This document shows, piece by piece, positions 30,616 through 48,382 of a stretch of DNA of 64,000 nt; the stretch's first letter is position 1, and each line of letters opens with the position of its first letter. A program made the translations under genes and the position numbers. Source of the stretch: a virus. The notes under the pieces were generated by a model. It was given only the letters and a program-made list of their open reading frames with translations. It made no database searches and was not told the origin of the DNA. Location: IMG/VR virus record IMGVR_UViG_3300034520_000378, one strand, 5' to 3'.

Positions 30616-31039
30616 GCGTATGTTCCTGTGCGAGCTTTGCGGCTCGCCATGCATTCAGTACACACAGACAGTAGAGTTCGCAGGCTTTACCCTTAGCGGC
30701 AAGGAGATAACTGAAACTATGTATGATGGGTATGCCTACTGCTGGGCTTGCGAGCGTACCACAGAAGCTATGGAGGGCTACCTGCTGTACAACGATGGTG
30801 AGCTGTACAGCATAATGGAGGACTACGACCGGCACCTGCGCATATACATGGTGCCGTTTAGAATGACTCACGACGAGCTTTACCCTGAGGAGCAGCCGCC
30901 GGAGCTGCTTGCCACACTGCAGCTTAACGAGTTCACACGTGCGCTCCTCAACGCACTGCTTGATGACTATGCTCCTCACGGCTACAGGCTCGAGATGTTC
31001 TACACTCTGCTGGGGGAGGTGGTAGATTATGCTCAATGA
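30605..31039 (+). CDS. paralog family A Zn-ribbon protein (recent duplicate of the previous gene)
   Basis: About 45 nt identical to the start of 30181. Confidence 0.75.
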   Translation: MLVKRMFLCELCGSPCIQYTQTVEFAGFTLSGKEITETMYDGYAYCWACERTTEAMEGYLLYNDGELYSIMEDYDRHLRIYMVPFRMTHDELYPEEQPPELLATLQLNEFTRALLNALLDDYAPHGYRLEMFYTLLGEVVDYAQ

Positions 31040-32030
31040 ACTTGTCCATGACCTGTTTGATATGGCAGCGGAGCTGGATGTTGAGCTACCGCTGGATATT
31101 GAGCAGACTGTGATGATAAGCGACATGGAATCGGTAATTGCCTCTACTGCCAGGATCCTAAAACAGCTTACCAACTACCGACAGGCTGTTTACACCGGAT
31201 ACATAGACGCGCAGTTTAACGTACCGCAGCCGTCACTGCCAGCTGAGTTTAAGTCATACCCGGATCTGATGGCTGGGGCCCACGCTCAAATGCTTGCCGA
31301 CAGATGGTACTTGTACCGCGACCTGTCTGATTCGAACCTTTTTACATGCTGCAGCCCCAAACACCTTAAGGACGCAGTCCGTACCTACTTCAGTGGTATC
31401 GTACACAAAGCATCCGGTGACGGCTGTGATACGTACAGCGCTGTAGTGGCAATCCCGCTTTGCGCATCGCAGCTGCTGCCCATGGTCAAATGGGGGCTTG
31501 ATGCTGATGCGCTAACCGACCAGCTTCTCTATTTGCTCAGCGAGCTGACGCGCACCACTCTAGCAGCGGTAGAGAAGCTGCGTGCCGGCCAAAGGCCTTT
31601 TGACGTCTCCGAGCTGTTCTTCGTCACGCTCACCCGCGTCACACCGGTATGCAGCTATGCACGGGTCGTCGTAAACGACTGCACGACACCCAGCACATTC
31701 CTGTGCTTTGACGACATATACCTGGCCATCTCTATACTGCGTGACACGGATTCCTCAGCCGAGGCTGCGCGCCTCTTGCTGCAGCACACCGCTAGTGCCA
31801 TGGCCCACTTTGCTAAACTGCTTACCCAGTGGCAGCACCAGGCTAATGAGTTCATGCGCGGCATAGAACTTGCCAGTGCGGTGCTCCGCTTCGTTACTGA
31901 TGTAGCAAAGCAAAGGCTGGAGGAATACGCTGCATCCTGTGCTACGCTCCAGCACTGGGAATCGTTTATAAGCTATAACTATCCCGGTTACTACACTCTA
32001 TTCTTCGGACGGGAGGCGGTCGTGATATGA
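31029..32030 (+). CDS. paralog family B protein
   Basis: LVHDLFDMAAELD...HWESFISYNYPGYY. Confidence 0.7.
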   Translation: MLNELVHDLFDMAAELDVELPLDIEQTVMISDMESVIASTARILKQLTNYRQAVYTGYIDAQFNVPQPSLPAEFKSYPDLMAGAHAQMLADRWYLYRDLSDSNLFTCCSPKHLKDAVRTYFSGIVHKASGDGCDTYSAVVAIPLCASQLLPMVKWGLDADALTDQLLYLLSELTRTTLAAVEKLRAGQRPFDVSELFFVTLTRVTPVCSYARVVVNDCTTPSTFLCFDDIYLAISILRDTDSSAEAARLLLQHTASAMAHFAKLLTQWQHQANEFMRGIELASAVLRFVTDVAKQRLEEYAASCATLQHWESFISYNYPGYYTLFFGREAVVI

Positions 32031-33067
32031 CACAGGTTTCTATAGCTGACTATCGCATTGACCAGCTGCTGTCAAAACTGTTCGATGTAGCGGCACAGTT
32101 TGACTTTGAGCCGGACATGCCAGTCGATACCGCCATGCTGATTACAACACTCCCCTCTCTGTTGGATAAGGCTATGAACGCAATGCATGAGGCGGTGAAA
32201 GTGTATAGTGACGAATACGAGGACGGCTACATTATTGACACGATAACAGTTTATGAACCGTCTCCACCGTCGTCGTTCTTTGACTATGATGACCTACTCA
32301 ACGCAGCATACCACATATTATCCTTAGACTTGGGCGATCTGTATGACAACCTTAACGATCCTGACTATCTTGCGGAGCTCGTTTCTCCTGAACACAAGCG
32401 CATCATTAAGGAGTACTTTCATGAGTTTAAGTACTCCAGCTCGTATGGCTGCGTGGACTACTTTAACCTGCGCCTTGACCTTCCCAGTTGTCCGGATATC
32501 GTCCATGCATTCTACAACTGGGAGATTTCCGCTCTTGATCTTGGCGACGCGCTCAAGGAACTGATAGTTGACCTATTTGAGTATGTCACCTCTGCGCTTG
32601 TCAAACTCCATACTGATGGTGACATGGAAGCTGCACGTCGTGCGCTATATGACGTTTATTACAGTATCACTGAGCACCACTCCGAGACTATCGATAAGTT
32701 GGCGTTTGTAGCTGATCTCCATACGGACATAGACAGCTTCAGATACGGCTTCGACAAGGATGCACACTTCTCCAGTGCCGACGAGCTGGCCCATACCGCT
32801 CTTCAGACTCTGTTCGAATTCCTGACAGAACTGACAGAGTCATTGGTAGAATGGGAAGCAGATGCCAGGTGGTTTGTAGAAGAGTGTCGGGCCTGCTTCA
32901 AAGCATTCAATAAACTGACTGACGCTATACAGAAACAGTTCAAAGACCTTGAGGTGTGGGCTGAGGATGAGGAGGCCTGGCGCGATTTTGTCGCTGAAGC
33001 CTACCCAGAGTACTACGCTGAGGTATACGAGTCCGACGCTGTGGCAGGTGGCTGCAATGCATCCTGA
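32027..33067 (+). CDS. paralog family B protein, very acidic
   Basis: LLSKLFDVAAQFD...AWRDFVAEAYPEYY. Confidence 0.7.
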   Translation: MTQVSIADYRIDQLLSKLFDVAAQFDFEPDMPVDTAMLITTLPSLLDKAMNAMHEAVKVYSDEYEDGYIIDTITVYEPSPPSSFFDYDDLLNAAYHILSLDLGDLYDNLNDPDYLAELVSPEHKRIIKEYFHEFKYSSSYGCVDYFNLRLDLPSCPDIVHAFYNWEISALDLGDALKELIVDLFEYVTSALVKLHTDGDMEAARRALYDVYYSITEHHSETIDKLAFVADLHTDIDSFRYGFDKDAHFSSADELAHTALQTLFEFLTELTESLVEWEADARWFVEECRACFKAFNKLTDAIQKQFKDLEVWAEDEEAWRDFVAEAYPEYYAEVYESDAVAGGCNAS

Positions 33068-33637
33068 AGAGGCTCTGCGTCAGGCGCTCCTCGCTTTTCA
33101 TACCGCCACCGAGCTTTGCTCAAGCCTGCCGGGCGTATCTATTGAGTCAATCTCGCTCGAGACCGCGCTTTTTCTCGAGGATGCGCATGCAAACTTTGCG
33201 TCTGTCTTCAAACAGACAGCTGATTTCTACCGGTCCTGCCAGCGCTACTTAACCGTTCTAGTCGAGATACCGGAAATTAATGTACCCAAGCTTTTCGACC
33301 AGGAACGCTATCTTGACCTTTCCATGGCCGTGTTCAAGGAAATAGCGGTGCGCTTAGTGTTGATGAGACGGTAGATTCGCTTCTGACTCACGCCGACCGT
33401 ACCGTCGACAGCCTGGTCGGTACTATCATGGGCTGGCTTGACGATATTGCCTGCGACAGACGTATAAACGAGAGGCGCGCTTCTGCTCTAGACATGATTT
33501 CCCGCTTCGTACAGGATATGCTTGAAGACTATGCCAGACGCTGTGCTGACCCGGGGCACTGGCGCGGTTTCGTTGCTCAGCACTTTCCCCAGTACTACCA
33601 TGAGCTGTACCCGGAAATTCCTCAAGAAACATGTTGA
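33057..33637 (+). pseudogene. family B member split by a probable frameshift (33057-33374 and 33428-33637)
   Basis: C-terminal piece HWRGFVAQHFPQYY matches family B ends; the frames overlap near 33320-33374. Confidence 0.45.
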
Positions 33638-33663
33638 CACATGTGTCCCATATATGGTACAAT
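33634..33663 (+). promoter_or_regulatory. sigmaA-like promoter with operator
   Basis: TTGACA-18-TACAAT; TGTCCC-N6-GGTACA. Confidence 0.65.
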
Positions 33664-34209
33664 ATAATTAGCAACACCCCTCCACCCCTGCACTGAAGTG
33701 CCCCGGAAGAGTTCACGAGTTACCGGGTTGAATGCAGCCCGCCGGAAAGCCGGCGGGCTGCATAACACTGTCTTTCAGGAGAGGTTGTGCATGCTTATTG
33801 ATGCACTCATCGTGAAGAACAACAAGCCGATAGTCTTCAAATGCGATACCTCATGCCCCTATTTTCACGATCACTGCTGCTGTGCAGGCAAGAAAGCGTT
33901 CAGGGGCATTCTAATTGAGCCAGGTATGCTCTGTCCACTCTTACCCAAGGAAGGAGGTGTTTTTCTTGCCGAAGATAGCGATAACCGATCTGGACGGTAG
34001 AGACGTTACTATTGACGCCCAGGAGTTTATACTAGTTGGCTATGGTACGCCGGAGGGCGAAAAGGAACCGCGGATCTTCTCGCTTTCGCATGCCGCTCCA
34101 ATCTTTGTTGCGCTGGCCTCCAAGATTGTAGATACCATGGCATACAACGAGATTGACGAGATCATGCGCGCAACGCAGCTTCTGCAGTCTGAAGAGGAGG
34201 AGAAGTGAC

Positions 34210-34497
34210 ATGCTGCGACCGATTGGAGCACGGTGTGTTATACAGCGCATCAAAGATCCCAACTCCAAGATCATTATCCCCGAAAGCGATAAGCTGCGCG
34301 GTGATGTGTACGTCCCGGCTGTAGTCCTGGCAGTCGGTGACGGTGCCTACCTCGAGTCCGGCGAAAAGGTGCCGGTCTGTGTGAAGCCGGGCGACAAAGT
34401 CCTGGTTCCCGAGCGTGTTGGCTACCACATTCGCCAGGACAATCAGGAGTACATCATCATAAACGAGCGCGACATTATTGCCGTCCTTGAGGAGTGA
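34210..34497 (+). CDS. groES: co-chaperonin GroES-like
   Basis: MLRPIGAR, IIIPES, VLAVGDG, VKPGDKV, ERDIIAVLE. Confidence 0.9.
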   Translation: MLRPIGARCVIQRIKDPNSKIIIPESDKLRGDVYVPAVVLAVGDGAYLESGEKVPVCVKPGDKVLVPERVGYHIRQDNQEYIIINERDIIAVLEE

Positions 34498-34528
34498 CTT
34501 ATCGCCGGGCCTATGGCCCGGCTGTACG

Positions 34529-34605
34529 GGCGGAGTAGCTCAATCAGGCAGAGCAGCAGTCTCCAAAACTGCCGGCTGCGGGTTCAAGTCCCGCCTCCCC
34601 CGCCA
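34529..34605 (+). tRNA. tRNA-Trp(CCA)
   Basis: Cloverleaf; anticodon arm gcagt-CTCCAAA-actgc; T-loop TTCAAGT; G73; encoded CCA; C3:C70 mismatch. Confidence 0.9.
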
Positions 34606-34630
34606 AAACTCTGAGAAAGGAGGTAAAAGC

Positions 34631-34828
34631 ATGCTTTTCAAGAGCGTTGAAGTAAGATGTCCGTATTGCGGAACAGTCAATATGGTCGACATTGAATTTC
34701 CTGGATACTCTCAACCCAGAGTAATCACATGCGACATTGAACAGGGCGGTTGCGACAAATACTTTGTCGTACAGCCTCATGTAAATGTCGAAGTGAAAAC
34801 CTACAAAATCGAAGGGATGGAGGATTGA
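34631..34828 (+). CDS. small Zn-ribbon protein
   Basis: AAAGGAGG RBS; CPYC...C...GGC. Confidence 0.6.
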   Translation: MLFKSVEVRCPYCGTVNMVDIEFPGYSQPRVITCDIEQGGCDKYFVVQPHVNVEVKTYKIEGMED

Positions 34829-35072
34829 ATCAGGACATTCGCATAACAAGTTCTCAACAGGAGAGATGATCTTTGTTACCGTGGTAGGCGTAAGGATCAA
34901 GCGTAGGAGGTGAAGGTATGCCCAATATGATACGTGTCCAAACCGAACAGGATAGGGATCAGCTTGCGATAATCCTCATCAGGGCCGGCTATAAGGTCTG
35001 GGCCGAGCGCAAGCATGACGCCAGCCTGACAAGCTGCAGTCACTATGTCTATTGGGAAGACATATCCCAGGA

Positions 35073-35196
35073 TGGAACGAACCAATCATATTCAGTAGAT
35101 CTCTAAGCTCATATAAGCAGGTATGTTACAGTAGTACAGGATCCCTGCTATACACAAGCGTAAGCTAAGCCTTGTTTAATGGTATGGTTCGTTCCA
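35073..35196. repeat. palindromic element, copy 2
   Basis: TGGAACGAACCA...TGGTTCGTTCCA with internal words shared with 2901-3085. Confidence 0.75.
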
Positions 35197-35233
35197 GGGG
35201 ACCATACCAAATACTAGCACGGAGGTGTGACGA

Positions 35234-36559
35234 TTGATTTACGCGCTAACGGACGTGCCACAGAAGCTCAACTCACAGACCAAGTCAAAGCTCACATGGC
35301 TCTCGCGCTACATGAGCTATGACTATATTGCCATCTTCAAGGCCGGGGGCTGGTCTGAGGCCGACGGCTACCGCTTTACGGCGTTTCTCAACTTCATGTA
35401 TCCCGAACTGAAGCATGCCATTATCTTCAACTATCCCATTGGGCATTCGGTAGGCTATATAGCCAAGCAGCTGGGCATGCGCAAGGAGGACGTCAACCAC
35501 TGCCAGCACCTTGCCTGTCTGTTTGGGATGCTCGAGAAGGATCGTCTGCTCTACTCACGCAAGAAAAAGCGTCCGGACAGGTTCCACTTTAAGACCGGTG
35601 TACCGCCGCAGCAGATAGTGGACGTGCTGCGCAGGCTCTCCTCTGCCGGTATAAAGTCTCTCAAACAGCTTACGAAGAAGAATGTTGCAGAGGCTGGTTT
35701 TACCGGTCTTGACAGAATCTATAGGCGCGACCGCCGCGGCGACAAAGGCATAACGTTTGAGGAATCCTACGCAGCAAGGCGTATGGACCAGCAGCTGCTG
35801 TTCAATATTGTCACATCACGTCCAGAGGAGCTGCTCCCCTATCTTCCCGATGGTATCAAGCCACAGCCGTTCACTCTGCCGTCCGGAAAGCAGGTCTACA
35901 GGTTTGTCGGCAAGTATGTTGACAGGTACGTTGTCGCTGTCCTGCCGCCGATTAACCCTGGAGAGAGCTACAGCTTCAAGATCTATCCTGACCTTGACCG
36001 TTCTTTGGATGACTACAACACATTTGCCATACTGCACAAAGGCAAGCCGCTTGATGCTCCTGGTGTGGTCTTTGATGGTCTCATCAAGGACTTCATAGAG
36101 TGCTACCACGGTGTGCCGCAGGGCTACAGCATTGTGCCTGCAGGTAATGGGATGTACAGGTTCCACAAAGATTTACCGGACGCCCCCACATCTGTCTGGC
36201 AGACCATGTTGGGCAATTACGACGCCTCTCACTTGCTCGACAGGATGTACAATTCTATTCTGGCTCCGTGTCTTGATTACGACTACTTTGAGCGGTTTGT
36301 CAATCGCCCGGCTCATGTAATCACGACTAAATATCCCGAACTCCTGCCAGCACCTGACGGTATGGAGTGGAAACTGCGGCATGGCCGTCACGGCTGTTAC
36401 TATCAGCTTACACCCCTTTCCCCGCACCTTAAGACCGTTCCCGTTCTTACGCGCACCTACCGCGGACGCGGGCTTATGTGGCACTTTGTCAGCAAGGATA
36501 AGGTAGACGAGTTTGTAAACAGGTTCGAGAAGGAGAGAAAAAAGATCACTGCTGCGTAA
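35234..36559 (+). CDS. hypothetical basic protein, possible DNA-binding or replication factor
   Basis: 441 aa; HTH-like SVGYIAKQLGM; directly upstream of dnaE. Confidence 0.6.
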   Translation: MIYALTDVPQKLNSQTKSKLTWLSRYMSYDYIAIFKAGGWSEADGYRFTAFLNFMYPELKHAIIFNYPIGHSVGYIAKQLGMRKEDVNHCQHLACLFGMLEKDRLLYSRKKKRPDRFHFKTGVPPQQIVDVLRRLSSAGIKSLKQLTKKNVAEAGFTGLDRIYRRDRRGDKGITFEESYAARRMDQQLLFNIVTSRPEELLPYLPDGIKPQPFTLPSGKQVYRFVGKYVDRYVVAVLPPINPGESYSFKIYPDLDRSLDDYNTFAILHKGKPLDAPGVVFDGLIKDFIECYHGVPQGYSIVPAGNGMYRFHKDLPDAPTSVWQTMLGNYDASHLLDRMYNSILAPCLDYDYFERFVNRPAHVITTKYPELLPAPDGMEWKLRHGRHGCYYQLTPLSPHLKTVPVLTRTYRGRGLMWHFVSKDKVDEFVNRFEKERKKITAA

Positions 36560-36631
36560 GGGCGGCGTCACTCTCCGTTCGCGCCGAATGTGATTCAGCT
36601 AAATAGTGCATCTAATTGAACACGAAAGGGG

Positions 36632-39600
36632 GTGTTGCCGATACTCTATGTCCCGACCCACGTCCATACCGCATTCAGCGTCCTCGATGGCCTCGCCAAG
36701 ACTGAAGATCTGGTTGCCAAGGCAAAAGAGTTCGGCATGCCAGCCATTGCGGTGACGGACCATCGCAACACCGCTGCGCATGTGAAGTTCTACAGGGTAT
36801 GTCAGGAGGCGGAAATAAAACCCCTGCTCGGCGTTGAGCTGAATGAAGCTGACGACAGGCTGCTGCACTCCCGTAAAGCGCGTCAGGAAAGAGGCTACGA
36901 TGACTACCACATCATCATGATTGCCAAGAACCAGGAAGGCTACAAAAACCTCATGGAGATAGTCTCGGACGCCTCTACTGCGGGCTACTTTGACAAGACC
37001 GAGCAGACAGACATGACGGTCCTCCGCGAGCGCGGCAGGGGAATTATAGCCACTTCGGCGTGCCTGGCCGGCCGCATCCCGCGGTACATCCTCCAAAACA
37101 GGCTGGACGATGCCGAGCGATGGATATCCGACTTCAAGGAAGTCTTCGACCAGTTCTATCTGGAGATTCAGCCAAACTCCCTGCCGGAGCAGGCTGTAGT
37201 AAACGAAGCGCTCATTCAGCTTGCACGCAAGACGAACACGCCGCTCATTCTTGGCACTGACGTGCACTATGTGAACCGCGAGGACGCCTTTGCACAGGAC
37301 ATTCTATTGTGTATCCAGACAGGCAAGAAGCTCAAAGACCAGGATCGTCTCAAGTTCAACGGAGATCCGGACTACTACATGTGGTCGCCGGAGGAGATAG
37401 ACAAGTGGATTGCCGCCTCTTCCCTGCCTCATGATGCTCTGTATGAAGCTGTAGAGAACACTCTACGCGTTGCCGAAGAATGCGACGTCACACTGGATCT
37501 TGGCACGCACAAGATGCCAACGTTCAAGACACCGGACGGCTCAACGCCTGAAGACTATCTTACACGCATCTGCTACACCGAACTTGACCGCAGGTTTGCC
37601 GATCACCCCGATTACGGCACATACAAGGCACGGCTTGAGATGGAGCTGTCTGTCATAATTCCCAAAGGCTTTGCGAGCTACTTCCTCATACTGCAGGATA
37701 TCCTGGACTACTGCAGACGTCAGGGTATACCGCGTGGCGGTGGGCGCGGCAGTGCGGCGGGATGCTTCGTAGCTTACCTGCTTGGGATAACAACAATAGA
37801 TCCGATACAGAACGGTCTATTGTTCGAGCGTTAGAGGATAGCGCTCGTTAAACTGGGTGAATTCGGGGAAACTCCCTTTAGGGACAACCCCGAGCCGAGC
37901 CTGGCCGGGCCCGGCGCAAGCCGGTGGTAGCCAGGAAGGTGTAGAGGCCAGCGGCTGAGTCCCAACGATAATGCCGCCACGAGCGCCCGGCACCGGAGTC
38001 CTCCGGTGATGATATGGTCCGACCTGCCTGGCAACAGGCAGAACCAGGAGATAAAAAGCTCCTGGGATAACATAAGTGTTCCTCAACCCCGAGCGCGTGA
38101 GCTTGCCCGACATTGATGTGGATATCAGTCACGAGCGTCGCGATGAGGTTATAGCCTACGTCCGCCAGACATACGGCCACGTTGCCCAAATAGCCACCTA
38201 TTCCCTACTCCATCCCAAGAGTGCCGTCCGTGACATATGTCGCGTACTGGATCTTTCCTATTCTTATGCTGACATGCTCTCCAAGCTGGTGCCCGAGAAG
38301 ATGCCAGACCAGTCCGAGGTAACGCTTGAGAAGTTCCTGCTCCCCGTAAACGACTTTGACAAGGCTGCCGAGAAGTGGGGACCGGCCGAGGCAAAAGCAA
38401 TCAAGGCACAGGCCGAGCAGTTCCTCAAGGAAGCGCAGAAGCACCCGGAGATTATGAACATCCTCCACAAGATAGAAGGCTGTGTCCGCTCTGTAGGAAT
38501 ACACGCTGGTGGCGTCCTCATAGCTCCCACGGAGCTTACGGACTACTGCAGCCTTATTGCTTCTCCGGGCAAGGTCGTCTGTTCGCTCGATATGGAGGAT
38601 GTCGATGTCTACGGCCTGCTGAAAGTCGACCTTCTCGGCTTAAAGACGGTGTCTATCATTTATCGAACAGCAGAAAGAGTTGGCGTTGACATAGACAGTG
38701 TGCCGCTAGATGATCCTGCTGTCTACGAGCTCTACCAGAACGGTCAGACCCACGGTATATTCCAGCTGTCCGGTGATGGTATCACGAGGTATGCCAAGGA
38801 GGTGAAGCCGCGAGAGTTCTCGGACCTGGTTGACATATTGGCCCTTGCCTAGGTGGTAGGGGGCCGTTAAAGCGGGTAATATGCTGGGACGCCCTTAGAG
38901 TCCAACCGACGATACCGACCGGTGACGGATCGGCGACCCGTAAAACTGGTTGGAATTGGGCAATCAGCAGGCAAAGTACTGAGTCAGTCAGTACTGGCCT
39001 CAGAGACTGCGGAGTATTCCGGCTCATGATTGGTGACAATCATGAGTATCCCCGCTAGGCCTCTAAGGAGGCCGAATGATACAGTCCGAACCCTAGGCGA
39101 AAGCTTAGGGAGTCAGGCAGAAATGACCTGACCTTCCAGGGCCATAGCTAGGCGTTGTCTAAGCCATTCTTCAGTTATTGGTTCATCGTACCGTATAACT
39201 AACAGTTTTAATCCATGGGCACTAATTAGTTTCTGCTTAATATAGTCCCGATACTTTCTGACCTTGAACTTCTCTAGCTCGTCTTCACCGAAGCGTTCTG
39301 TTTGCGGTATATAGTGTTGCTCACCATTGTACTCTATGCATAGTTTATAGGCTGGAAAGTAAGCATCAACATAGAGCTTACGTCCCGTTTTAGGGTTAAC
39401 TAGCCATGGAAATGACTTCTCCAGGATATAGGTGCTATTGAGAATCTTGGCTATTTTCTCTATAATGATTCGCGCTGTTACTGGATTGCCTGGTATTCGA
39501 TCTTCTAGTCCGGCAGCTCTGTAAGCATTATTAAGAGAGCCGAATCTGCGCATGAATGTCTCAACTGAGTAGCGTGATGCCTCCTTAATGACCTTGTGAG

Positions 39601-42600
39601 AAACATACCCGTATTCGTCTTTGAGTCGTCTTAGCTCTTCAAGGAGGTGTTCTTCAGGAATGTTTATCTCACAGTTGATGGGTAGCCCAAGTTCTCTAAG
39701 CATGTTGTTAAAGCTTCCAAACAGGCGCTCTATAGGTTTGCGTGAATACTTGCCTTCTCGTAGATAGAGTTCTTTGGTGATGCGACCATGCTCCCTAAAG
39801 ACTCTTAGGACGTCTTCAACTAGTTCTTCTCTTGTAATTGGCGTGGCCCTGTGAGACGCTTCTTTATGCGGCTCGAGACCAAGAAGGCGGTAGACGTTTA
39901 GAAGTGATCCAAAGTGATCCTTATATGCCGTAGGTCCAAACCGCCCATGGTTGGCGATTATCTGATTGGTTACCTTACCGAATAGTTCGTAAAGCCGCAG
40001 GAATTCTTGTAGCAACTCTTCGTCGCTTATCTTTCCTTTATGCGGTGTTCTCACAGGACTCCGCCAGTTACGAGTTGAGATCCGTTTACTATCCTGTTTG
40101 TTAAGTTTAAGTTCTTCTGCAAGGCGCTTTATACCTCCGTACTTCTTCACTTGATAATACGTAAGTACGGGATGCTTCTGAATAAGCTCTTTGCTGATGT
40201 GCCCATGGGACTTGTAGATCTCATACAGATACCTGAGGACTTCTTCGCGAGTCATACCGTACTATACCTCCCATTGGTATTCTCATGGAGGTATAGTACC
40301 TGGAACAAAACGTTCACATTGCCTAGCTATACCTGGATGTAACATAAAGCTACCGTCCAGGCCCACTCGACGCCGTAGTAGAAACAGGGCGCACCATTGC
40401 AGAACAGTATATCTACAATCGTGAGCATCCAGATGAGATAACCTACCCGCACCCGGATTTGGAGGATATACTGAGGCCGACATACGGCGTTATGATATAC
40501 CAGGAGCAGGTGACTTCGTCGCCTGGCAGATACAGAAATGTATCTGCGTAGAACCGGGCAAAATCGGCGGAGCCAACATACCGTATCGTTTAGCAGGAGG
40601 AAAACGATATGTCCAAGAGCGCTTGTCATGACCCCGTCCGAGAGCAAGCAGTTGCATTATACAGCCAGGGATTACTTATTCGTGAAGTTGCCGAACTGTT
40701 ATCCCTTAAGCCCAGTACTGTCCAGTCGTGGATATCTAAGGCTGGTATAAGCAGACATCGTGGTCCCGCTTCTGGCGTGGTTAACGAAGATTACTTCGAT
40801 TACATTGATACAGAAGACAAAGCTTACTGGCTTGGTTGGCTTATGGCTGACAGCTGTATTAGCGTCTACAACGGACAGTACTCTCTTAAGATTCACATAG
40901 CCATTGAAGATAGGATACTCATTGATACGTTTCTAAGGTTTATTAGATCAAGCAATAAGCCATGCATCAAGCAGTACCGAGGATGTACTTCATACTACGT
41001 TAGTTTGACATCGCGCCACATGGTTGAGGCTCTAATAAGACATGGTGTAGTCCAAGGTAAATCGGCGCGTTGTTCTATTCCAGATATACCGCAAGACCTT
41101 GTTAGACATTTTGTACGCGGTTATTTTGATGGAGACGGTACGATTGAGACACGTGGCAAACGACGCAGGGCAGGGATAACAGGACATCCGCTTTTGCTTG
41201 AGCAAATTTTAGACATGATCATCCAGTCACACCCGTTAGAACGGTGTCCTAAAATATATCCTTCAACCGGAACATCTTACTTTCTCATTAGTAGGCGCCA
41301 TGATTTAGAGATGTTTTATGACTATCTGTATGGAGATGCAACTATATGGCTTCCCAGGAAGCGCGATGCTTTTGTTGAAGCTCTTGGGCGTGGCAACGCC
41401 GAGGTAACCATCTAGCCTAAAAACAAGATGGCACCGTAACGCATAGAGGGTGAACCTGTGAGCACGAAATGTGCTCACAGAATATAATCCCTCCACGAGT
41501 GTCCGGCACCCAAACCGTAAAGGTCGGTGGGTGAAAACGTATGCTGACCTGTGCCGAGTGGTATGGTAGGCACAGAACTAGAGGATAAAAAGCCTCTAGG
41601 GTAACAAAGTGGATGAACATTGCTAAGAAGCTTGCGGGCTACACTCTAGGTCAAGCGGACGCCCTAAGAAAACTTATAGCCAAAAAGAAGCTTGATGAGC
41701 TTCCTGCAGCTCGTGCACAATTTGTCCAGGGCGGCGTAGCAAATGGTTATCCTGAAGAGCTGATGAACCAGCTCTTCGACCAAATAGAGAAGTTCGGTGG
41801 GTTGACAGAACAGCCCCCGTGCGGAGCAATCCGCACGTGCAAACCGGGTGAATTCAGGGGAAGCCTGAGATGGTCACCCTGAGCCAAGCCCAGCCAGGGG
41901 CCCGATGGATAATCGGTGGCGGCTGGGAAGGTGCAACGACCAGGACGTGCGTCCCCGACAATAAGCGTTCCTCGAGCGCCCGGCATCCCTCTGGGATGAT
42001 GATATGGTCTAGCCCAACGGGAAATGAACCGTTGGTAGGAGCGATGCCTTCAACAAGTCCCATTCCGCAGCGTACGCATACCTGTCATACCAAACGGCCT
42101 ATCTCAAAGCACATTACCCGGTAGAGTTCATGGCCGAGTTGATGTCAAGCGATGTGGACAATCCCGATAAGCTGCTGGAGCACGTACAGGAGTGCCGCAA
42201 GATGGGCATCCCGCTGCTCCCGGTAGACGTAAACCACAGTAAAGCGGAGTTCTCCATTGAGACTGTTGACATTGCAGGCCGCCCGGTCAAGGCAATCAGG
42301 TACGCCTTAACCGGTATCAAGACCATAGGCCGCAGTGTAGCTGACGAGATTGTAGCGCACCAGCCGTACGAGTCGTTTGAAGACTTCGTGCAGAAGGTGC
42401 GCGGGCGGACGGTACACAAGAAGGTCATGCGCACGCTTATCCTTGCCGGTCTGTTTGACTGCTTTAAACCAAACAGGTACGCTCTTCTGCACAAGTACTA
42501 CTTTGTGCTACGCAGAGAAAAGCCTGATGATGTCGACTGTCCTGATCCGGCTACATGGAGTGATTCAGCTAAATATAGTCTTGATCAAGAGTCTTACGGT

Positions 42601-43017
42601 TTTGCGCTGTCTGGCCATCCTGCAGAATCGTATCCATGTCACTATCCACCTGCTGTACCGTACGATAGGCCGTTCTACATTTCCGGAGTTATCACTGACG
42701 TAATCGTGGACAAGGACAAGCAGGGGCGGCAGATGGCCAAGGTGCGGCTCGATACGCCATTTGGTCTGTATGCCATAAGATTCTACTACCGCCAGTGGCA
42801 GCGCTACAGGTCGCTCGTCAATCAGATACGTCAGCTCGACCTGCCGCTTGTCACCATCAAGGTTAGGAAGACACGGTACATGTCACATGACATCATCGAA
42901 GCGGTCCATGTGCTTGTGCCAGAGGAAGCACAGCGGATGTGGCAGGAGTATCTTGACAGCTGCTTTAACGTTCACACGGTCCTGCGCTCGAGCCGCCTTG
43001 TGCGATTCTACGCGTGA
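36632..43017 (+). CDS. dnaE: DNA polymerase III alpha subunit; exons 36632-37831, 38079-38845, 40350-40511, 41612-41802, 42044-43017 (1097 aa spliced)
   Basis: PHP domain; GRGSAAG; junctions restore LLFER|FLNPER, LAL|YRPGP, YQEQV|MNIA, FGGY|AFNKSH; 3294 nt in frame. Confidence 0.95.
37832..38078 (+). ncRNA. group I intron 1 (247 nt, no ORF)
   Basis: P1 GAGCGU/GCGCUC with U.G; P10 GAGGA/UCCUC; GAUAUGGUCC S element; terminal G. Confidence 0.92.
39113..40255 (-). CDS. intron-encoded endonuclease: four helical repeats plus a DUF559/Vsr-like nuclease domain
   Basis: Four ~50-aa repeats ending (F)GS/G..N....LGL; C-terminal LYVDAYFP...IEYNGEQHY. Confidence 0.8.
   Translation of the reverse strand: MTREEVLRYLYEIYKSHGHISKELIQKHPVLTYYQVKKYGGIKRLAEELKLNKQDSKRISTRNWRSPVRTPHKGKISDEELLQEFLRLYELFGKVTNQIIANHGRFGPTAYKDHFGSLLNVYRLLGLEPHKEASHRATPITREELVEDVLRVFREHGRITKELYLREGKYSRKPIERLFGSFNNMLRELGLPINCEINIPEEHLLEELRRLKDEYGYVSHKVIKEASRYSVETFMRRFGSLNNAYRAAGLEDRIPGNPVTARIIIEKIAKILNSTYILEKSFPWLVNPKTGRKLYVDAYFPAYKLCIEYNGEQHYIPQTERFGEDELEKFKVRKYRDYIKQKLISAHGLKLLVIRYDEPITEEWLRQRLAMALEGQVISA
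40259..40299 (-). promoter_or_regulatory. hairpin sequestering the endonuclease RBS
   Basis: Minus strand: GTACTATACCTCCAT-loop-ATGGGAGGTATAGTAC-ggt-ATG. Confidence 0.7.
40512..41611 (+). ncRNA. group I intron 3 (1100 nt) with LAGLIDADG ORF
   Basis: P1 CAGGU/GCCUG; P10 UUCGUC/GAUGAA; P4 UCGGCG/CGCCGA flanks the ORF; P7 GCAUA/UAUGC; terminal G. Confidence 0.9.
40609..41415 (+). CDS. LAGLIDADG homing endonuclease with N-terminal HTH
   Basis: [12 protein letters not shown] and [11 protein letters not shown]; AGGAGG RBS. Confidence 0.88.
   Translation: MSKSACHDPVREQAVALYSQGLLIREVAELLSLKPSTVQSWISKAGISRHRGPASGVVNEDYFDYIDTEDKAYWLGWLMADSCISVYNGQYSLKIHIAIEDRILIDTFLRFIRSSNKPCIKQYRGCTSYYVSLTSRHMVEALIRHGVVQGKSARCSIPDIPQDLVRHFVRGYFDGDGTIETRGKRRRAGITGHPLLLEQILDMIIQSHPLERCPKIYPSTGTSYFLISRRHDLEMFYDYLYGDATIWLPRKRDAFVEALGRGNAEVTI
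41803..42043 (+). ncRNA. group I intron 4 (241 nt, no ORF)
   Basis: P1 GGGU/GCCC; core similar to intron 1 (GGGUGAAUUC, GAGCGCCCGGCA, GAUGAUAUGGUC); terminal G. Confidence 0.9.
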
Positions 43018-43034
43018 AGGGAGGTGCTTCATCT

Positions 43035-43406
43035 TTGCCTCGTGCCCCACATGTGCAAGCACATGAGGTGCTTTCACTTGATGACGTTATAACGAAGCTG
43101 GCTACGCAGACAGGGATGTTTAAAAGCGACGTCCGTCGGGTGGTTGTTGCTCTGCGCGACCTTATCCTGGACGAGGTAGCCAAAGGAAATGCCGTCAGGC
43201 TGTACCGCCTGGGGATCTTCGTTCCCCGGCCGCGCTACATGACAGAGAAGACCAGTGACGGCAAAAAGCGCTTCGTCCTTGACAAAAGCAAGCTGGGGCT
43301 GGTGTTTTATCCTTCCACCCCGGCTGCCACACTCAAAGCCAAAACTGATGTGGAGCAGTTAATCAATACCCCTTACACAGGGTTCAAGCATAACTATGTA
43401 TTCTAA
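43035..43406 (+). CDS. HU/IHF-like DNA-binding protein 1
   Basis: VRLYRLGIF...LVFYPS. Confidence 0.7.
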   Translation: MPRAPHVQAHEVLSLDDVITKLATQTGMFKSDVRRVVVALRDLILDEVAKGNAVRLYRLGIFVPRPRYMTEKTSDGKKRFVLDKSKLGLVFYPSTPAATLKAKTDVEQLINTPYTGFKHNYVF

Positions 43407-43425
43407 AGGAGGAGGTATAGCTATC

Positions 43426-43704
43426 ATGAGAAAGAACGAGCTTATTTCCACTATTGCAAGCCTAACTGGTAGGGAGAAGAAGGTTGTGCGCGAGGTGCTC
43501 AATACGTTTGTGGACGTTGTACGTCAGTCCGTGCGCCAGGGGGCGAAGGTGCGCATTGCCGGGCTGGGCACATTTGCTACCGTTGACAGGCCTGCACGCA
43601 GGTACAAAAACCCCATCACCGGAGGCGACGTGATGGTTCCCCCTGGCAAGCGCGTGAAGTTTTCACCAAGTGCTGACTTTAAAAGCTACGTTAACAATGC
43701 CTGA
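43426..43704 (+). CDS. hup: HU DNA-binding protein 2
   Basis: MRKNELI, IAGLGTF, RPARRYKNPITG, VKFSPS. Confidence 0.9.
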   Translation: MRKNELISTIASLTGREKKVVREVLNTFVDVVRQSVRQGAKVRIAGLGTFATVDRPARRYKNPITGGDVMVPPGKRVKFSPSADFKSYVNNA

Positions 43705-43766
43705 TGAACCGAGCCGGGTATAACGCCCGGCTCTATGTATCTTAACTATCAAGGAGGGCGATTGAC

Positions 43767-44186
43767 ATGCGTTGGTCAGATATGTCTACGATCGAGCTTT
43801 TGCAGCTCTACGAGTCTGCACGCCAGGTAATAAACAGTGACTGCTACGGTATATCGGACATATCGATTATTGCAGGTGTCGAGGCGGAGCTGAAGCGCCG
43901 TGCCAAATCCGTCGTTGATGAGGCCAAAGCACTAATTCACGAGGTAAAAGCTGGTATTGAGCAGGAGTTTTACCGTATCCTAGATACACAGCCGCATGAG
44001 ATGGCTGTTAACAAAGCCTTTGAGCTCATGCTGGAGGCCTCTGCTCTTGCAGAGGGATACTACACCCAGGATGACATTGTTCTGGCCGTGCGCGAGTTCC
44101 TGCGTCAAGCAGTTGAGGCATGGGTTGAAACGCAGATTCAAGGGGGGCGCATGAGTGATTCGTCTAATGGATGTAGTAGTTACTAA
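43767..44186 (+). CDS. hypothetical protein
   Basis: AAGGAGG RBS. Confidence 0.6.
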   Translation: MRWSDMSTIELLQLYESARQVINSDCYGISDISIIAGVEAELKRRAKSVVDEAKALIHEVKAGIEQEFYRILDTQPHEMAVNKAFELMLEASALAEGYYTQDDIVLAVREFLRQAVEAWVETQIQGGRMSDSSNGCSSY

Positions 44187-44243
44187 CTTATAAGTTATTT
44201 ACTCATGAGTTAGTAACACATCCAGGCTTAATGGAGGTGAACA

Positions 44244-45002
44244 GTGATGGGTCTTGTTTTGAGCATAATCCCAACAGATGAAACCTTGATCGGTATTATC
44301 AAGCGCTTGAACGAGTCGTATCCTCATAAAGGCAGCAGCTGCATGCTTATAGCCAAACAGATCAAAGAGCGCGACTATATAGGCGCTGCTACTACGTTTG
44401 CTCTGTCATTTGCACAGCTTGGAGATGATGACGACTTGCCCAAGGTACTAGCGGCGCTGGCGGAGAAGCAGTATGACAGCGACCAAGTACTCATGTCTCT
44501 GTACGATATTCTTGGAGACTTGACTGAGGAGGGTGACGACTTTCAGCTCAACGAGACTAGCGACAGCTTTGGTTCATACCGTTCAGTGCACTACTTCCGC
44601 TCGTTTGCTGCACACACGCTTGACCTGTGGTGCCGTGCCGGCAGGCTATCCCTGGAAGACGGCCTGCAGCTGCTGAAAACCTCGCAGGACGCACCACTGG
44701 TTTACGACTCTATCATGTGTCCTCATCTTACCGAGCATTCCGATTGTGATGGCTACTACTTCCCTATTTACACCAAATACCCCATCAATCCGGTGTTTGG
44801 TTCGCTGTATGGTTTGGCGGAAGAGCTTGTGCTGCTTTACCGGACGGGCATATTCGGCATTCTGTCCTCGCTCAAGGAGCGCAGGCTGGGTTTTGACGCT
44901 TATCTCCTTGACTATATAGGGTTCATTCTAACACGGTATGTAATGCTTGTGCGGTTTGTTGTGACTGCCCTTGAGTTTGATGATACCATCGTATTCTGCT
45001 GA
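44244..45002 (+). CDS. hypothetical protein
   Basis: GGAGGTG RBS; 252 aa. Confidence 0.6.
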   Translation: MMGLVLSIIPTDETLIGIIKRLNESYPHKGSSCMLIAKQIKERDYIGAATTFALSFAQLGDDDDLPKVLAALAEKQYDSDQVLMSLYDILGDLTEEGDDFQLNETSDSFGSYRSVHYFRSFAAHTLDLWCRAGRLSLEDGLQLLKTSQDAPLVYDSIMCPHLTEHSDCDGYYFPIYTKYPINPVFGSLYGLAEELVLLYRTGIFGILSSLKERRLGFDAYLLDYIGFILTRYVMLVRFVVTALEFDDTIVFC

Positions 45003-45012
45003 AGGAGGTTGA

Positions 45013-45354
45013 GTGTTGATGTCCAATGTGGTGCTCAAACCAATTCCTGAGCTTACCGAAACCAATCCTGCCGCCAGGCTGGTAGAGTTTTATGCGAAGC
45101 TCGGCTGGAACATGGAGGATCAACTGGATCCAACCAGGGTTAGGATGTGGCGCGACGACCTAAACGCGCTGATGGCTGCTGAGACCGAGCATGCCAAGCG
45201 CGTGCTCACTGACCCGGGCTCTAACCCCGTCTTGCTTGTGGGATTCCTTTGGGCCAGCAAGGGACCGAGTGCAGACGGCGTCACACCCGGCAAGGTTGAG
45301 CTGCATCCCGGTTGGACTATACCGGTAACCAAGAAACAGGAGGTGTCTGCATAA
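45013..45354 (+). CDS. hypothetical protein
   Basis: AAGGAGG RBS. Confidence 0.6.
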   Translation: MLMSNVVLKPIPELTETNPAARLVEFYAKLGWNMEDQLDPTRVRMWRDDLNALMAAETEHAKRVLTDPGSNPVLLVGFLWASKGPSADGVTPGKVELHPGWTIPVTKKQEVSA

Positions 45355-45716
45355 TGGCATATCAACCAGTGTTTGTCACTATAACCGATGTTAACGGCAC
45401 GAGGCAGTCGTATTCCTGCAGGAAAAAAGTGACATGGGTTGACACGTGCATTAACTTTTCCTCTGGAGCCCGTATCGAGGTAAGCTCTTCGTACGGCGAT
45501 GAAATGTCTAGTGATGTTCCAAGTATATCTATACAGAGAAATAACAGAGGCGGGCCTGTATCACTGGATATTTCCGGATTACTTGGTACTGATACGGAGC
45601 TCTACTTAGGTGATGCGAAGGTAAATATGAGAGAGCTTGCCAGAGACCCGCAGACGGCACTGGCCAAGCTGGTTGCGCAATATCTGGAACAATGCGCTCA
45701 AGCTCGTGTCTCATAG
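45354..45716 (+). CDS. hypothetical protein
   Basis: TAATG coupling plus RBS. Confidence 0.55.
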   Translation: MAYQPVFVTITDVNGTRQSYSCRKKVTWVDTCINFSSGARIEVSSSYGDEMSSDVPSISIQRNNRGGPVSLDISGLLGTDTELYLGDAKVNMRELARDPQTALAKLVAQYLEQCAQARVS

Positions 45717-45718
45717 TA

Positions 45719-45747
45719 TTGACATTATGAGTCTTATTAGATACAAT
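45719..45747 (+). promoter_or_regulatory. sigmaA-like promoter
   Basis: TTGACA-17-TACAAT; operator overlaps the -35. Confidence 0.75.
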
Positions 45748-45776
45748 TAGTATAGTACAGGAAAGGGGGTGTCGAG

Positions 45777-47780
45777 GTGTCTACTGCTGCCGCAGCGGCA
45801 CTCGACCGGTTTCAACAGCAGGCAGTAGAAGCGCCGATCGATCAGCACGTGCTCGTCACCGCTCCGCCGGGCAGCGGTAAAACCCGTGTGCTCACGCACC
45901 GCTATCTGTACCTTGTCCAAAACGCTGGTATCCCCGCTGAATCGATAGTAGCTGTAACCTTTACAAACAAGGCAGCTAATGAGATGAAGCAGCGCATATC
46001 CTCCGTCCTTGGTTTGGATGATGTAAGTAAACTACCGATTGCCACCTTCCACTCCCTTGCCTACCGCTGGTTGCGCAGGTATCACAATGTTGTCGATCTA
46101 CCGAGCACGCTGACAGTGTTTGACGAAAGCAAGACGCGCAAGGTGATACGCGAGATTGTGCAGGACACTCCGTACGATACTGATATACTCTGCGCTGCTA
46201 TCTCCTATCTTGCCAACCAGGGCATGTTTCCGGGATATGACACAGGCTTTTTTGACTGGTCCGGCTTTGAAGAGCGCTACCGCGGCATAGACAAATACCA
46301 GATGCTTTCGATATACCGTGAGTTCTTCGACCGGATGCTCAAGCTGCGAGCCCTCAGCTTTGACATGCTCATCCTTTACGCCATCCGTCTGTTTGAAAGA
46401 AAGACGAGTGCAGAGATGCACATATCGCACGTCCTGGTTGATGAGTGCCAAGACATAAATCCCGCACAGTATGAGCTTTTGAGGCAGATGGCAGCTGGTG
46501 GTGCCCTGCTTTATCTAACAGGTGACATAGACCAAAGCCTGTACGGCTTTCGCGGCAGCCGCCCCGAGCTGATAGAGGACTTTGTGCAGGAGTTCCAGCC
46601 GCAGCAGTACAGGCTGGTATACAACTACCGCTCTGGTGCCGAGATAGTCAACGTTGCTTCGGATGTTATACGCGTTAACTATCTTGGCAGCAACAGCAAG
46701 ATCCAATTTAAGCCTATACAACCAGTGAAGGACGGCGGTCTGGTGCGCTGGTTTAACATAGTATGCGATGGCGACCAACCCATTTCCTCTGCCAAGCTCA
46801 TTGCGGACACTCTGACGCTGCTTGTCCACAGCGGCGGCTATAAACCTGGTGATATAGCGGTGCTGTCCCGCGCATCCAGGCCTATCATCTCGATGCTGGA
46901 CGAGGTGATACGTGAGCTTGCAAAGTATGCGGCACAATCCGAGACCGATCAGATCCCTGTACGGCTCGTACTGCCGCGCTATCCACTTGATGACGCAGCA
47001 AAGTCGTTCATCCTGTTTGCTGCCAATCCCCACGATGTTGTCAGCCTTCGTGATTTGCTTGAAAGGTTGAAGTTTATTGGCGAGAAGACCGCTGCACGGC
47101 TGGCAAACAAGTATGCACGCTCGCCAGTGGATAGTATCACTGATCTACCGGCGGTATTCAGAGGCGACCTGGTCAAGGGACTATCCAAGCGCACCAGGAA
47201 GGTGCTAGACGTTCTGGCGGACGCGTTTGACAAGATAGCCGATACAACCAAGCCGCTTTCGGAGCGTGTGTACGACTCCACACTCGAGCTGCTCTACATC
47301 CTCAAGGATGCGTCCGAGGATGACACGTCCATTGCTTTAGCCATTGAGCTTGCAGAGCAGTACAATGGCTCAGCGACGGACTTGCTCGACCTTGCTTCAA
47401 TGCTTAATCTCGTCTATTCGACATACGAGGATGCCAAGGCCGGCAAAACCGACTCGGTAGTCTTTTCCACCATCCACTCAGCCAAGGGGCTGGAGTACAA
47501 GGTGGTGGTTATACTCGAGTTCCCGCGCAGCAGCTTCCTGCTCAACTCGATGGATCTAACAGAGGAGCGCAGAGTGTTTTATGTGGCCGTCACTCGCGCG
47601 ATAGAGCGCGCCTATATCATCTCGTTCTATCCCAAATCGTTCTTCCTAGATGACGACTTCATTATAACCGACGTACAGCATCCAAACCTGGTACGTGAAT
47701 TCCTTATGCTCACAGACGTTGAGCCCGTGCACATCGAGAGTGACTTTGAGTTTACTATTGCACTCTCTGCAGAGCTGTAA
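45777..47780 (+). CDS. UvrD/PcrA family helicase
   Basis: APPGSGKT, TFTNKAA, VDECQD, GDIDQSLYGFRG, NYRS, TIHSAKGLE, YVAVTRA. Confidence 0.93.
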   Translation: MSTAAAAALDRFQQQAVEAPIDQHVLVTAPPGSGKTRVLTHRYLYLVQNAGIPAESIVAVTFTNKAANEMKQRISSVLGLDDVSKLPIATFHSLAYRWLRRYHNVVDLPSTLTVFDESKTRKVIREIVQDTPYDTDILCAAISYLANQGMFPGYDTGFFDWSGFEERYRGIDKYQMLSIYREFFDRMLKLRALSFDMLILYAIRLFERKTSAEMHISHVLVDECQDINPAQYELLRQMAAGGALLYLTGDIDQSLYGFRGSRPELIEDFVQEFQPQQYRLVYNYRSGAEIVNVASDVIRVNYLGSNSKIQFKPIQPVKDGGLVRWFNIVCDGDQPISSAKLIADTLTLLVHSGGYKPGDIAVLSRASRPIISMLDEVIRELAKYAAQSETDQIPVRLVLPRYPLDDAAKSFILFAANPHDVVSLRDLLERLKFIGEKTAARLANKYARSPVDSITDLPAVFRGDLVKGLSKRTRKVLDVLADAFDKIADTTKPLSERVYDSTLELLYILKDASEDDTSIALAIELAEQYNGSATDLLDLASMLNLVYSTYEDAKAGKTDSVVFSTIHSAKGLEYKVVVILEFPRSSFLLNSMDLTEERRVFYVAVTRAIERAYIISFYPKSFFLDDDFIITDVQHPNLVREFLMLTDVEPVHIESDFEFTIALSAEL

Positions 47781-47806
47781 AACTACAAAGGAGGTGCCCT
47801 AGCTTG

Positions 47807-48382
47807 ATGGAGCTTACTCCTGAGTTTAGGCAACAGTATGTCGAAGTGGTTGAGGGGCGCGACTTCATCAAGTACGACGGCTTGATGGAGCTCGCTCACG
47901 ATCACATTGCAAGCATTGAGGTTGAGCTGATTGCCCTTCCTGCCGTTACAAACCTCAACACAGCGGTGGTGAAAGCCACCATCACTGATACCGATGGACG
48001 CAAGTGGTCGGCGCTTGGTGATGCGTCCGACACGACTTGCGCGCCCGAGCTTGCACCGCACAAGATACGCATTGCGGAAACGCGTGCCAAAGGGCGTGCG
48101 TTGAGGGACATGCTCAACATCGGCATGCCGATGTACGAGGAAGTCTTCCCCACACCGTCACAACAGACCTCTGTCGACGACAACGCGCCTATAACGCTTG
48201 AGCAGATAGCCCGGTTCAAGCAGTTTATAGACGCCGGGCTCATGACGAAGGACGAGGCGCGCGACATCATGGTCAAAGCCGTGAACAAGGAAAGCTTGAA
48301 CCAGTTAACCAGAGCAGAGGCAGATGCGCTGCTTAAAACCTTCACTCTGTATGTGGAGTCAAAAAGGAGCAGGGTCTCTTGA
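47807..48382 (+). CDS. Rad52/Sak-like ssDNA-annealing protein (putative)
   Basis: IKYDGL...GDA...IAETRAKGRALR. Confidence 0.55.
   Translation: MELTPEFRQQYVEVVEGRDFIKYDGLMELAHDHIASIEVELIALPAVTNLNTAVVKATITDTDGRKWSALGDASDTTCAPELAPHKIRIAETRAKGRALRDMLNIGMPMYEEVFPTPSQQTSVDDNAPITLEQIARFKQFIDAGLMTKDEARDIMVKAVNKESLNQLTRAEADALLKTFTLYVESKRSRVS

Follow-up and report, generated by a model that had tools for sequence, protein, structure and literature searches.

Group I introns enter phage genes singly and in sets. In 1999, Landthaler and Shub reportedly described Twort orf142 with three of them. Single introns reside in the family A polymerase genes of SPO1/SP82 (gene 31, with I-HmuI), Bastille (I-BasI) and the T7-like phage Pf-WMP3 (I-PfoP3I) (PMC3428280, PMC3984707). 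Several interruptions of one gene have been documented in crAss-like Zeta phages, where the major capsid protein (MCP) gene lies in five fragments and PolB in four (PMC7886860), and in Bacillus cereus-group prophages, where the tape measure protein (TMP) gene offers three sites to homologous introns that were retargeted through P1 (PMC2504315). Metatranscriptomes support the group I introns of Jug phages, which number 18.5 per genome on average (PMC12880540). Here we describe dnaE, a family C polymerase gene, in a 64,000-nt stretch of DNA (the window) from an uncultured virus, IMG/VR record IMGVR_UViG_3300034520_000378. A sequence-only reading of the window had proposed that the gene is divided into five exons by four group I introns, and this proposal is borne out by the restored reading frame, a gap-free alignment to an uninterrupted homolog, ribozyme evidence and intronless alleles at all four sites. 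We think it very likely that this is the replicative polymerase gene of a large uncultured phage, and that its four introns self-splice to yield a DnaE protein of 1097 amino acids (aa).

Results

Five exons restore one DnaE reading frame

All parts of the gene lie on the plus strand. Exon 1 (36632..37831; 400 codons, ending in LLFER), which aligns to the DnaE of Moorella phage MTATph1, encodes the PHP domain (Pfam, 6.9e-45) and the first 92 of the 260 positions of the Pol III alpha NTPase/palm profile (DNA_pol3_alpha). Exon 2 (38079..38845, 767 nt) takes up that profile at position 93 and carries it to 260, supplying the catalytic PDIDVD motif and the remaining palm, and then begins the finger domain (profile positions 13-72). 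The two short exons, both within the finger domain, lack their own start codon and ribosome-binding site: exon 3 (40350..40511; 162 nt, 54 codons), running from (L)YRPGP to YQEQ(V), covers positions 74-121 of 166, and exon 4 (41612..41802; 191 nt, 63 codons), from (V)MNIAKK to EKFGG(Y), covers positions 122-166. Exon 5 (42044..43017, 974 nt), which opens with (Y)AFNKSHS, encodes the HhH domain (HHH_6, 1.6e-22) and the C-terminal region, and aligns to MTATph1 DnaE up to residue 1033. Profile positions run on across the breaks (92 to 93 in DNA_pol3_alpha; 72 to 74 and 121 to 122 in the finger profile), and the domains follow one another as in a family C DnaE: PHP, palm/NTPase, finger and HhH (PF02811, PF07733, PF17657, PF14579).

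Joining the five segments gives 3294 nt in a single open frame of 1097 codons for amino acids, with one terminal stop, and junction peptides (hyphen or parentheses at the join) LLFER-FLNPER, ILA(L)YRPGP, YQEQ(V)MNIA and FGG(Y)AFNKSH. Both the frame and the peptides are exactly those given in the sequence-only reading, which had also named alignment to an intronless DnaE as a check. The spliced protein and the uninterrupted MTATph1 DnaE are 40% identical over 1,030 residues and align without a gap at all four junctions, where the residues stand as LLFERFLNPER, AL(Y/V)RPGP, YQEQ(V/L)M and FGGY(A/G)FN. The sequences removed are 247, 1504, 1100 and 241 nt long (introns 1 to 4), and each, as had been predicted, introduces an in-frame stop if left in place, 1, 5, 38 and 78 nt past the respective 5' splice site. 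A listing of open reading frames (ORFs) presents the gene as separate plus-strand DnaE-like pieces (36632-37834, 38076-38852, 41613-41882 and 42130-43017), with a 380-aa minus-strand ORF (39113-40255) and a 268-aa plus-strand ORF (40609-41415) between them. Exon 3 had been described as missing from this listing, and indeed no DnaE piece is listed there; its predicted length of 162 nt was likewise correct.

Splice-site and core pairings are those of group I introns

Each intron is inserted in the codon block for a highly conserved motif, and the splice-site features that had been pointed out at every junction were verified by script. P1 is 7, 6, 5 and 6 bp long in introns 1 to 4, with a U·G pair at the last exon base in each (U37831·G37841, U38845·G38860, U40511·G40521 and U41802·G41813), and the last intron base is a G in all four (38078, 40349, 41611 and 42043). 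Introns 1, 2 and 3 have a P10 of 5, 5 and 6 bp that adjoins the P1 guide strand or lies no more than 2 nt from it, in agreement with the clear P10 that had been claimed for three of the junctions. P7, assigned by hand and checked for complementarity by script, pairs at 5/5 bp in each intron. Helices P3 to P8 were located in canonical order, with their complementarity checked, including the P3/P7 pseudoknot with the G-binding site. Taking the introns out at exactly these junctions restores the frame, and alleles without the introns exist.

Intron 1 (37832..38078, plus strand) and intron 4 (41803..42043, plus strand) are ORF-less group I ribozymes of 247 and 241 nt, in line with the two related ribozymes of about 245 nt that had been proposed. 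They score 66.0 and 64.7 bits with Rfam model RF00028, for which the gathering score is 50 bits; within the window this model matches only these two introns and the core of intron 2. Intron 1, whose minimum free energy (MFE) has a z-score of -5.1, pairs as P1 (37825-31/37841-47, with the U·G pair), P10 (37834-38/38080-84) and P7 (37946-50/38015-19), and has a single hairpin between P7 and P3'. Intron 4 (P1 41799-804/41811-16; P7 41938-42/42005-09) has a P2 and is otherwise homologous to intron 1. The two are 80% identical over aligned columns, and compensatory changes occur in 23 of the 42 pairs that RNAalifold predicts from an alignment of their family. The kinship that had been noticed between the 3' hairpins of introns 1 and 3 also held (81% identity, with three compensatory pair changes). 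Intron 4 separates KFGGY from AFNKS (41793-41802 / 42044-42060), the residue boundary that is also that of the classical cyanobacterial DnaE split intein, KFAEY-CFNKS.

Two larger introns carry ORFs on opposite strands

Intron 3 (40512..41611, plus strand, 1100 nt) is a group I intron with an ORF in its P5 loop, and all of its pairings were verified. On the 5' side these are P1 (40507-11/40521-25), P10 (40515-20/41612-17) and P2 (40526-34/40539-47); in the core, P3 (40554-60/41500-06), P4 (40564-69/41397-402), P5 (40572-75/41391-94) and P6 (41408-13/41426-31); and in the 3' half, P7 (41441-45/41540-44), P8 (41507-12/41528-33), P9 (41549-55/41569-75) and P9.1 (41578-84/41593-99). When most of the ORF (40580-41386) was removed and the remaining 293 nt were folded without constraints, the MFE structure showed the canonical succession of helices: P2, a P3 of 7 bp formed across the deletion, a P4 of 6 bp, P5, P6, an extended hairpin between P7 and P3', P8 and the 3' hairpins. 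Its energy lies 7.85 standard deviations below that of dinucleotide shuffles (z -7.85), compared with +0.27 and -1.26 for two exon controls of equal length. An nhmmer profile of intron 1/4 relatives matched intron 3 only weakly (E 0.022).

The intron 3 ORF (40609..41415, plus strand, 268 aa) encodes a predicted LAGLIDADG homing endonuclease with an N-terminal helix-turn-helix. It scores 34.4 bits with Pfam LAGLIDADG_3 (PF14528), whose cut-off is 22.5, matches PHROG 4645, endonuclease, at 1.7e-46, and has two LAGLIDADG motifs, LGWLMADS and GYFDGDG. Immediately ahead of the ATG is a 7-bp hairpin whose loop holds an AGGAGG, and the 3' end of the ORF overlaps P5', P4' and the start of P6.

Intron 2 (38846..40349, plus strand, 1504 nt) has its group I core at 38846-39132, with P1 (38840-45/38860-65), P10 (38855-59/40350-54) and P7 (39005-09/39082-86) as well as P3, P4, P6, P8, P9 and P9.1. 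Unconstrained folding of the ORF-deleted intron gave P3, P4, P5, P6, two hairpins between P7 and P3', P8, P9 and P9.1, with a z-score of -6.2. Subgroup IA, to which most phage introns belong, is suggested by the additional hairpins that lie between P7 and P3'. Located 3' of P9.1 is an antisense ORF (39113..40255, minus strand, 380 aa) with three homing-endonuclease-associated repeats (Pfam PF18780, HNH_repeat, 2.7e-30 over three stretches), whose C-terminal residues 264-365 match PHROG 559, 9084 and 7140, annotated as homing or intron-encoded nucleases. A GGAGG is found 11 nt before its ATG, inside a near-perfect inverted repeat (40258-40302) that directly precedes the ATG on the minus strand. 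The hairpin formed by this repeat, which the intron RNA of the sense strand would form as well, may control translation of the antisense endonuclease. The 3' tail of intron 2 (40256-40349) resembles the terminal segment of intron 1, and a possible stem, CCAGG 39136-40 with CCUGG 40332-36, would enclose the endonuclease gene. Because of this resemblance, and because the stem could close around the ORF, the arrangement suggests that intron 2 arose from an ORF-less intron whose terminal hairpin was invaded by an endonuclease cassette.

A diverged relative and intronless alleles

The search for relatives covered DnaE fragments of 140-447 aa, 120 of which were screened for ends at the four junctions. 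One close relative was found, protein P0002, which is 72% identical to exon 2 and is encoded on a 2.4-kb contig (L130). At its start the contig has the last 22 nt of an intron, which match the 3' terminus of intron 1 at 22/22 positions, and exon 2 then begins. It reads through ALYRPGP and YQEQIM, with intron 3 and the whole 1504 nt of intron 2 absent exactly at the predicted junctions, and it ends with FGG/t and a homolog of intron 4 in which the first 59 core nt are identical (59/59) and the P1 loop is longer. Exons 2-4 of L130 and the window share 75.8% protein identity, with a nonsynonymous divergence (dN) of 0.17 and a saturated synonymous divergence (dS), which indicates purifying selection on the dnaE exons. 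In most 10-codon blocks the exons are about 70% identical at the nucleotide level, and they differ at about 28% of bases, whereas the first 29 nt of exon 2, lying between intron 1 and an additional intron in L130, are 100% identical to the window. The identity of this segment and of the visible parts of introns 1 and 4, set against diverged exons, is what would be expected after a recent lateral transfer in which flanking exon sequence was co-converted.

The additional intron of L130 (L130:56-1215, 1160 nt) follows SLPD. It is preceded by an exon-terminal U, ends in G, contains a LAGLIDADG ORF and scores 50.2 bits with RF00028. Its removal restores SLPD-IDVD. This fifth site interrupts the catalytic aspartate motif 33 nt 3' of where intron 1 is inserted, and it is empty in the window. 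The LAGLIDADG ORFs of intron 3 and of the L130 intron are 35% identical (E 5e-34), though the intron sites differ. In the L130 ORF (L130:225-890) the second LAGLIDADG motif reads GYFDGNG in place of the GYFDGDG of the intron 3 enzyme, and the L130 enzyme may therefore be a nickase or inactive.

Empty sites were also found elsewhere. Site 1 is uninterrupted in six deposited phage DnaE genes, where the match to exon 1 ends one base before the match to exon 2 begins, and all four sites are empty in MTATph1 and in IMG/VR contig L002. The exon 3 sequence is contiguous with those of exons 2 and 4 in L130 and MTATph1. About 9 kb upstream of the intronless DnaE on L002 there are two matches to the type-P5 twister ribozyme (L002:203-272 and L002:1241-1310; 45-46 bits, with a threshold of 37.6).

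A megablast of the locus against 50,697 phage records gave no match, and scans with a P3'/P7' motif pattern found 4 viral and at least 119 metagenome loci, none of them in dnaE. DnaE fragments with ends near the junctions were rejected on the four contigs that we opened (L131-L134, from ENA and Logan assemblies): these are bacterial genes broken by frameshifts into overlapping ORFs, with no insert. Artefacts of this kind, and not split genes, may also account for other short DnaE 'fragments' among the collected proteins. A scan of bacterial and archaeal genomes with exon 2 retrieved only DnaE genes at 31-35% identity and so offers no clue to the host.

Genomic context

The exon 2 protein of the window occurs on four contigs, the longest of 148 kb. 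Surrounding dnaE is a one-strand replication and nucleotide-metabolism module with helicases, a UvsX-like recombinase, SbcCD-like proteins, NrdD and HU-like proteins. The one-strand module, the PHROG hits and the fact that the nearest DnaE is that of a phage make the designation 'phage' a well-founded, if indirect, one, and we infer that the source is a large uncultured phage with a contig of about 148 kb.

Other features of the window were noted as well. A few kb downstream of dnaE, a match to HEARO, the IscB omega-RNA (49497-49732, 101 bits), adjoins a 515-aa ORF (49592-51139), and together they are another mobile element in the same replication module. A free-standing 382-aa ORF (26624-27772) matches PHROG 1314, 'HNH endonuclease', at 2.2e-96, and could be a candidate trans-acting endonuclease.

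Discussion

Our analysis portrays dnaE as a gene whose expression would require four independent, guanosine-initiated splicing reactions. In the model that we favor, the whole gene is transcribed as one pre-mRNA, in which each intron would fold into a ribozyme and its internal guide sequence would pair with the end of the upstream exon, forming P1 with its U·G wobble. An external guanosine bound in P7 would attack the 5' splice site, after which the terminal G of the intron would replace it, and the freed 3'-OH of the exon would attack the 3' splice site, aligned with the help of P10 in introns 1-3. The product would be the 3294-nt mRNA; were any intron to be retained, translation would end 1 to 78 nt past its 5' splice site. 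What the sequences show directly is the anatomy of the locus, the restored frame, the hits to ribozyme models, the presence or absence of introns between relatives, and purifying selection; splicing itself, the activity of the endonucleases, expression of the antisense gene and the way in which the introns spread are deduced from these.

Several observations speak against this model or against parts of it. A comparison with group I models, suggested as a check in the sequence-only reading, came out divided: introns 1 and 4 reach the gathering score, but intron 2 stays under the threshold at 41.7 bits (E 1.5e-8 in a local search, 3.2e-7 over the window), and intron 3 as a whole has no Rfam hit, its 3' half alone giving only chance microRNA matches. 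Rfam is apparently blind to intron 3 because the LAGLIDADG ORF occupies the P5 loop and its 3' end crosses P5' and P4' into P6. A covariance model that we built from eight sequences of the intron 1/4 family (R1) gives 12.4 bits for intron 2 and 3 bits for intron 3, so that these two are not close kin of introns 1 and 4 except in the 3' hairpin. Given the lack of an Rfam hit and the 3 bits with R1, the assignment of intron 3 rests on folding, hand-checked pairings and comparison. For intron 4, a script looking for P10 found none of at least 3 bp; P10 is not obligatory in group I introns. Ribosomes could enter introns 3 and 4 and disturb their folding, since the first stops lie 38 and 78 nt into them. 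In the antisense ORF of intron 2 we found no Pfam nuclease domain, the only hit to one being PvuRts1I-like_N (E 0.053, below its cut-off). The ORF had no sequence match in the PDB, and an AlphaFold2 single-sequence model of the C-terminal domain, with a pLDDT of 51, was unusable. A promoter scan gave nothing above shuffle expectation, and no candidate for this ORF. Lastly, that the source is a phage is a deduction, and no structural genes lie in the window.

The sub-threshold score of intron 2, the failure of Rfam to detect intron 3 and the missing P10 of intron 4 would all suit a locus in which the inserts are group I introns by descent and at least one, likeliest intron 2 or 3, no longer self-splices. 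Then dnaE would be a decaying pseudogene, with another polymerase in use, or would depend on a protein cofactor such as a maturase. We regard this as improbable, since the frame is open through all exons and no conserved DnaE motif has been lost, strong purifying selection is evident against the 76%-identical relative, the core helices of introns 2 and 3 are all intact and strongly structured, and the same sequence was recovered unchanged from several samples. It is harder still to believe that the inserts with endonuclease genes are never spliced out, and that DnaE is made as separately translated polypeptides that later assemble ('fractured genes'). Replicative polymerases split by free-standing endonuclease genes are known (PMC2677866), but exons 3 and 4, inside the finger domain, have nothing with which to start translation, and both ORF-bearing insertions have complete group I cores, with P1, P10 and the terminal G exactly at the junctions.

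An uncultured, metagenomic source also raises the question of whether intron-like sequences were misassembled into dnaE. Contig L003, from a different sample, matches window positions 30621-48571 with 0 mismatches in 17,951 nt and is arranged identically; intron 3 with its flanks recurs on three more short contigs from other samples, and the diverged L130 has homologous introns at sites 1 and 4. An assembly chimera is accordingly so unlikely that we give it almost no weight. Inteins were ruled out as well, every insert having in-frame stops and an RNA core.

If dnaE is indeed interrupted by four self-splicing introns, their mobility becomes the next question. Introns 2 and 3 would home by means of their own endonucleases, which would cut intronless dnaE alleles and allow repair to copy the intron. 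Introns 1 and 4 are related ORF-less ribozymes retargeted to two sites through their guide sequences, and they probably spread by co-conversion with neighboring endonuclease-bearing introns or by means of an endonuclease acting in trans. A bolder picture, which we offer tentatively and consider rather unlikely to hold in its entirety, makes dnaE an intron hub with at least five sites across two relatives. Introns 1 and 4 would hitch-hike on double-strand-break repair initiated by their neighbors, a notion that comes from their visible parts and the first 29 nt of exon 2, which are identical in the window and L130 while the exons differ at about 28% of bases. Intron 2, for its part, would have a functional, convergently transcribed antisense homing-endonuclease gene, a first among bacterial-type group I introns. 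If this picture were true, convergent transcription within intron 2 could interfere with the dnaE pre-mRNA.

With this locus, a family C replicative polymerase would join the phage DNA-metabolism genes that group I introns have colonized; dnaE was known earlier mainly as an intein host. Four introns in one C-family polymerase gene had been called unusual in the sequence-only reading. As a class, such genes are not, because phage genes in four or five pieces have been published (PMC7886860, PMC12880540), but full-text searches on phage group I introns, made for dnaE and for DNA polymerase III alpha, found no paper that places one there. The locus is a clear example of a familiar type of selfish element, of interest chiefly for the differences in intron content between relatives, for the spread of its ORF-less introns and for an endonuclease gene in antisense orientation. 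The window and L130 together lend themselves to the study of how ORF-less introns move: introns 2 and 3 are polymorphic between them, the fifth intron is private to L130, and the visible parts of introns 1 and 4 are identical amid diverged exons. There is a practical side too: gene callers break this dnaE up into four or five ORFs that look unrelated and overlook exon 3, and exact junctions allow correct annotation.

Comparison with known systems places each of these features. Like the introns of SPO1/SP82, Bastille and Pf-WMP3, those described here occupy conserved motifs of a phage replicative polymerase and carry predicted homing endonucleases, and the folds of introns 2 and 3 point to the same extra P7-P3' hairpins, as in subgroup IA. 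The earlier cases differ in being single introns in family A genes with HNH nicking enzymes, whereas here a family C gene has four, with a LAGLIDADG enzyme and an antisense repeat-type nuclease. With the multi-intron phage genes, dnaE shares several group I introns in one essential gene and the coexistence of ORF-less and endonuclease-bearing introns, and the B. cereus-group prophage TMP gene offers a parallel for introns 1 and 4 in its homologous introns retargeted by P1 changes. Here the host gene, dnaE, and the phage lineage are different, and junctions, core helices and intronless alleles are defined at base resolution.

The antisense endonuclease gene of intron 2 is unusual for bacterial-type introns; in the text of a 2014 review of bacterial group I introns, neither 'antisense' nor 'opposite' occurs. 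Its counterpart is found in nuclear rDNA, where group I introns at L2066 have homing-endonuclease genes in antisense orientation (PMC9548176). In both settings the gene runs antisense to the intron and occupies a peripheral loop. The L2066 introns are eukaryotic and nucleolar, with His-Cys box enzymes and spliceosomal introns, whereas intron 2 is a bacterial-type intron in a protein-coding phage gene, with a nuclease of another family.

The closest parallel for the position of intron 4 is a protein-level element. PolIII alpha is an intein host (PMC4760082), a dnaE interruption in a paper on Thiomargarita is an intein and not an intron, and the native flanks of the cyanobacterial split DnaE intein are KFAEY and CFNKS (10.1101/196105). 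Both the intein and intron 4 are selfish elements, and they interrupt dnaE at one and the same residue boundary. The intein is removed from the protein, whereas intron 4 has in-frame stops, a ribozyme core and a +1 Ala that an intein could not use. Their shared position lends support to the idea that selfish elements removed from RNA and those removed from protein have arrived convergently at the same conserved targets.

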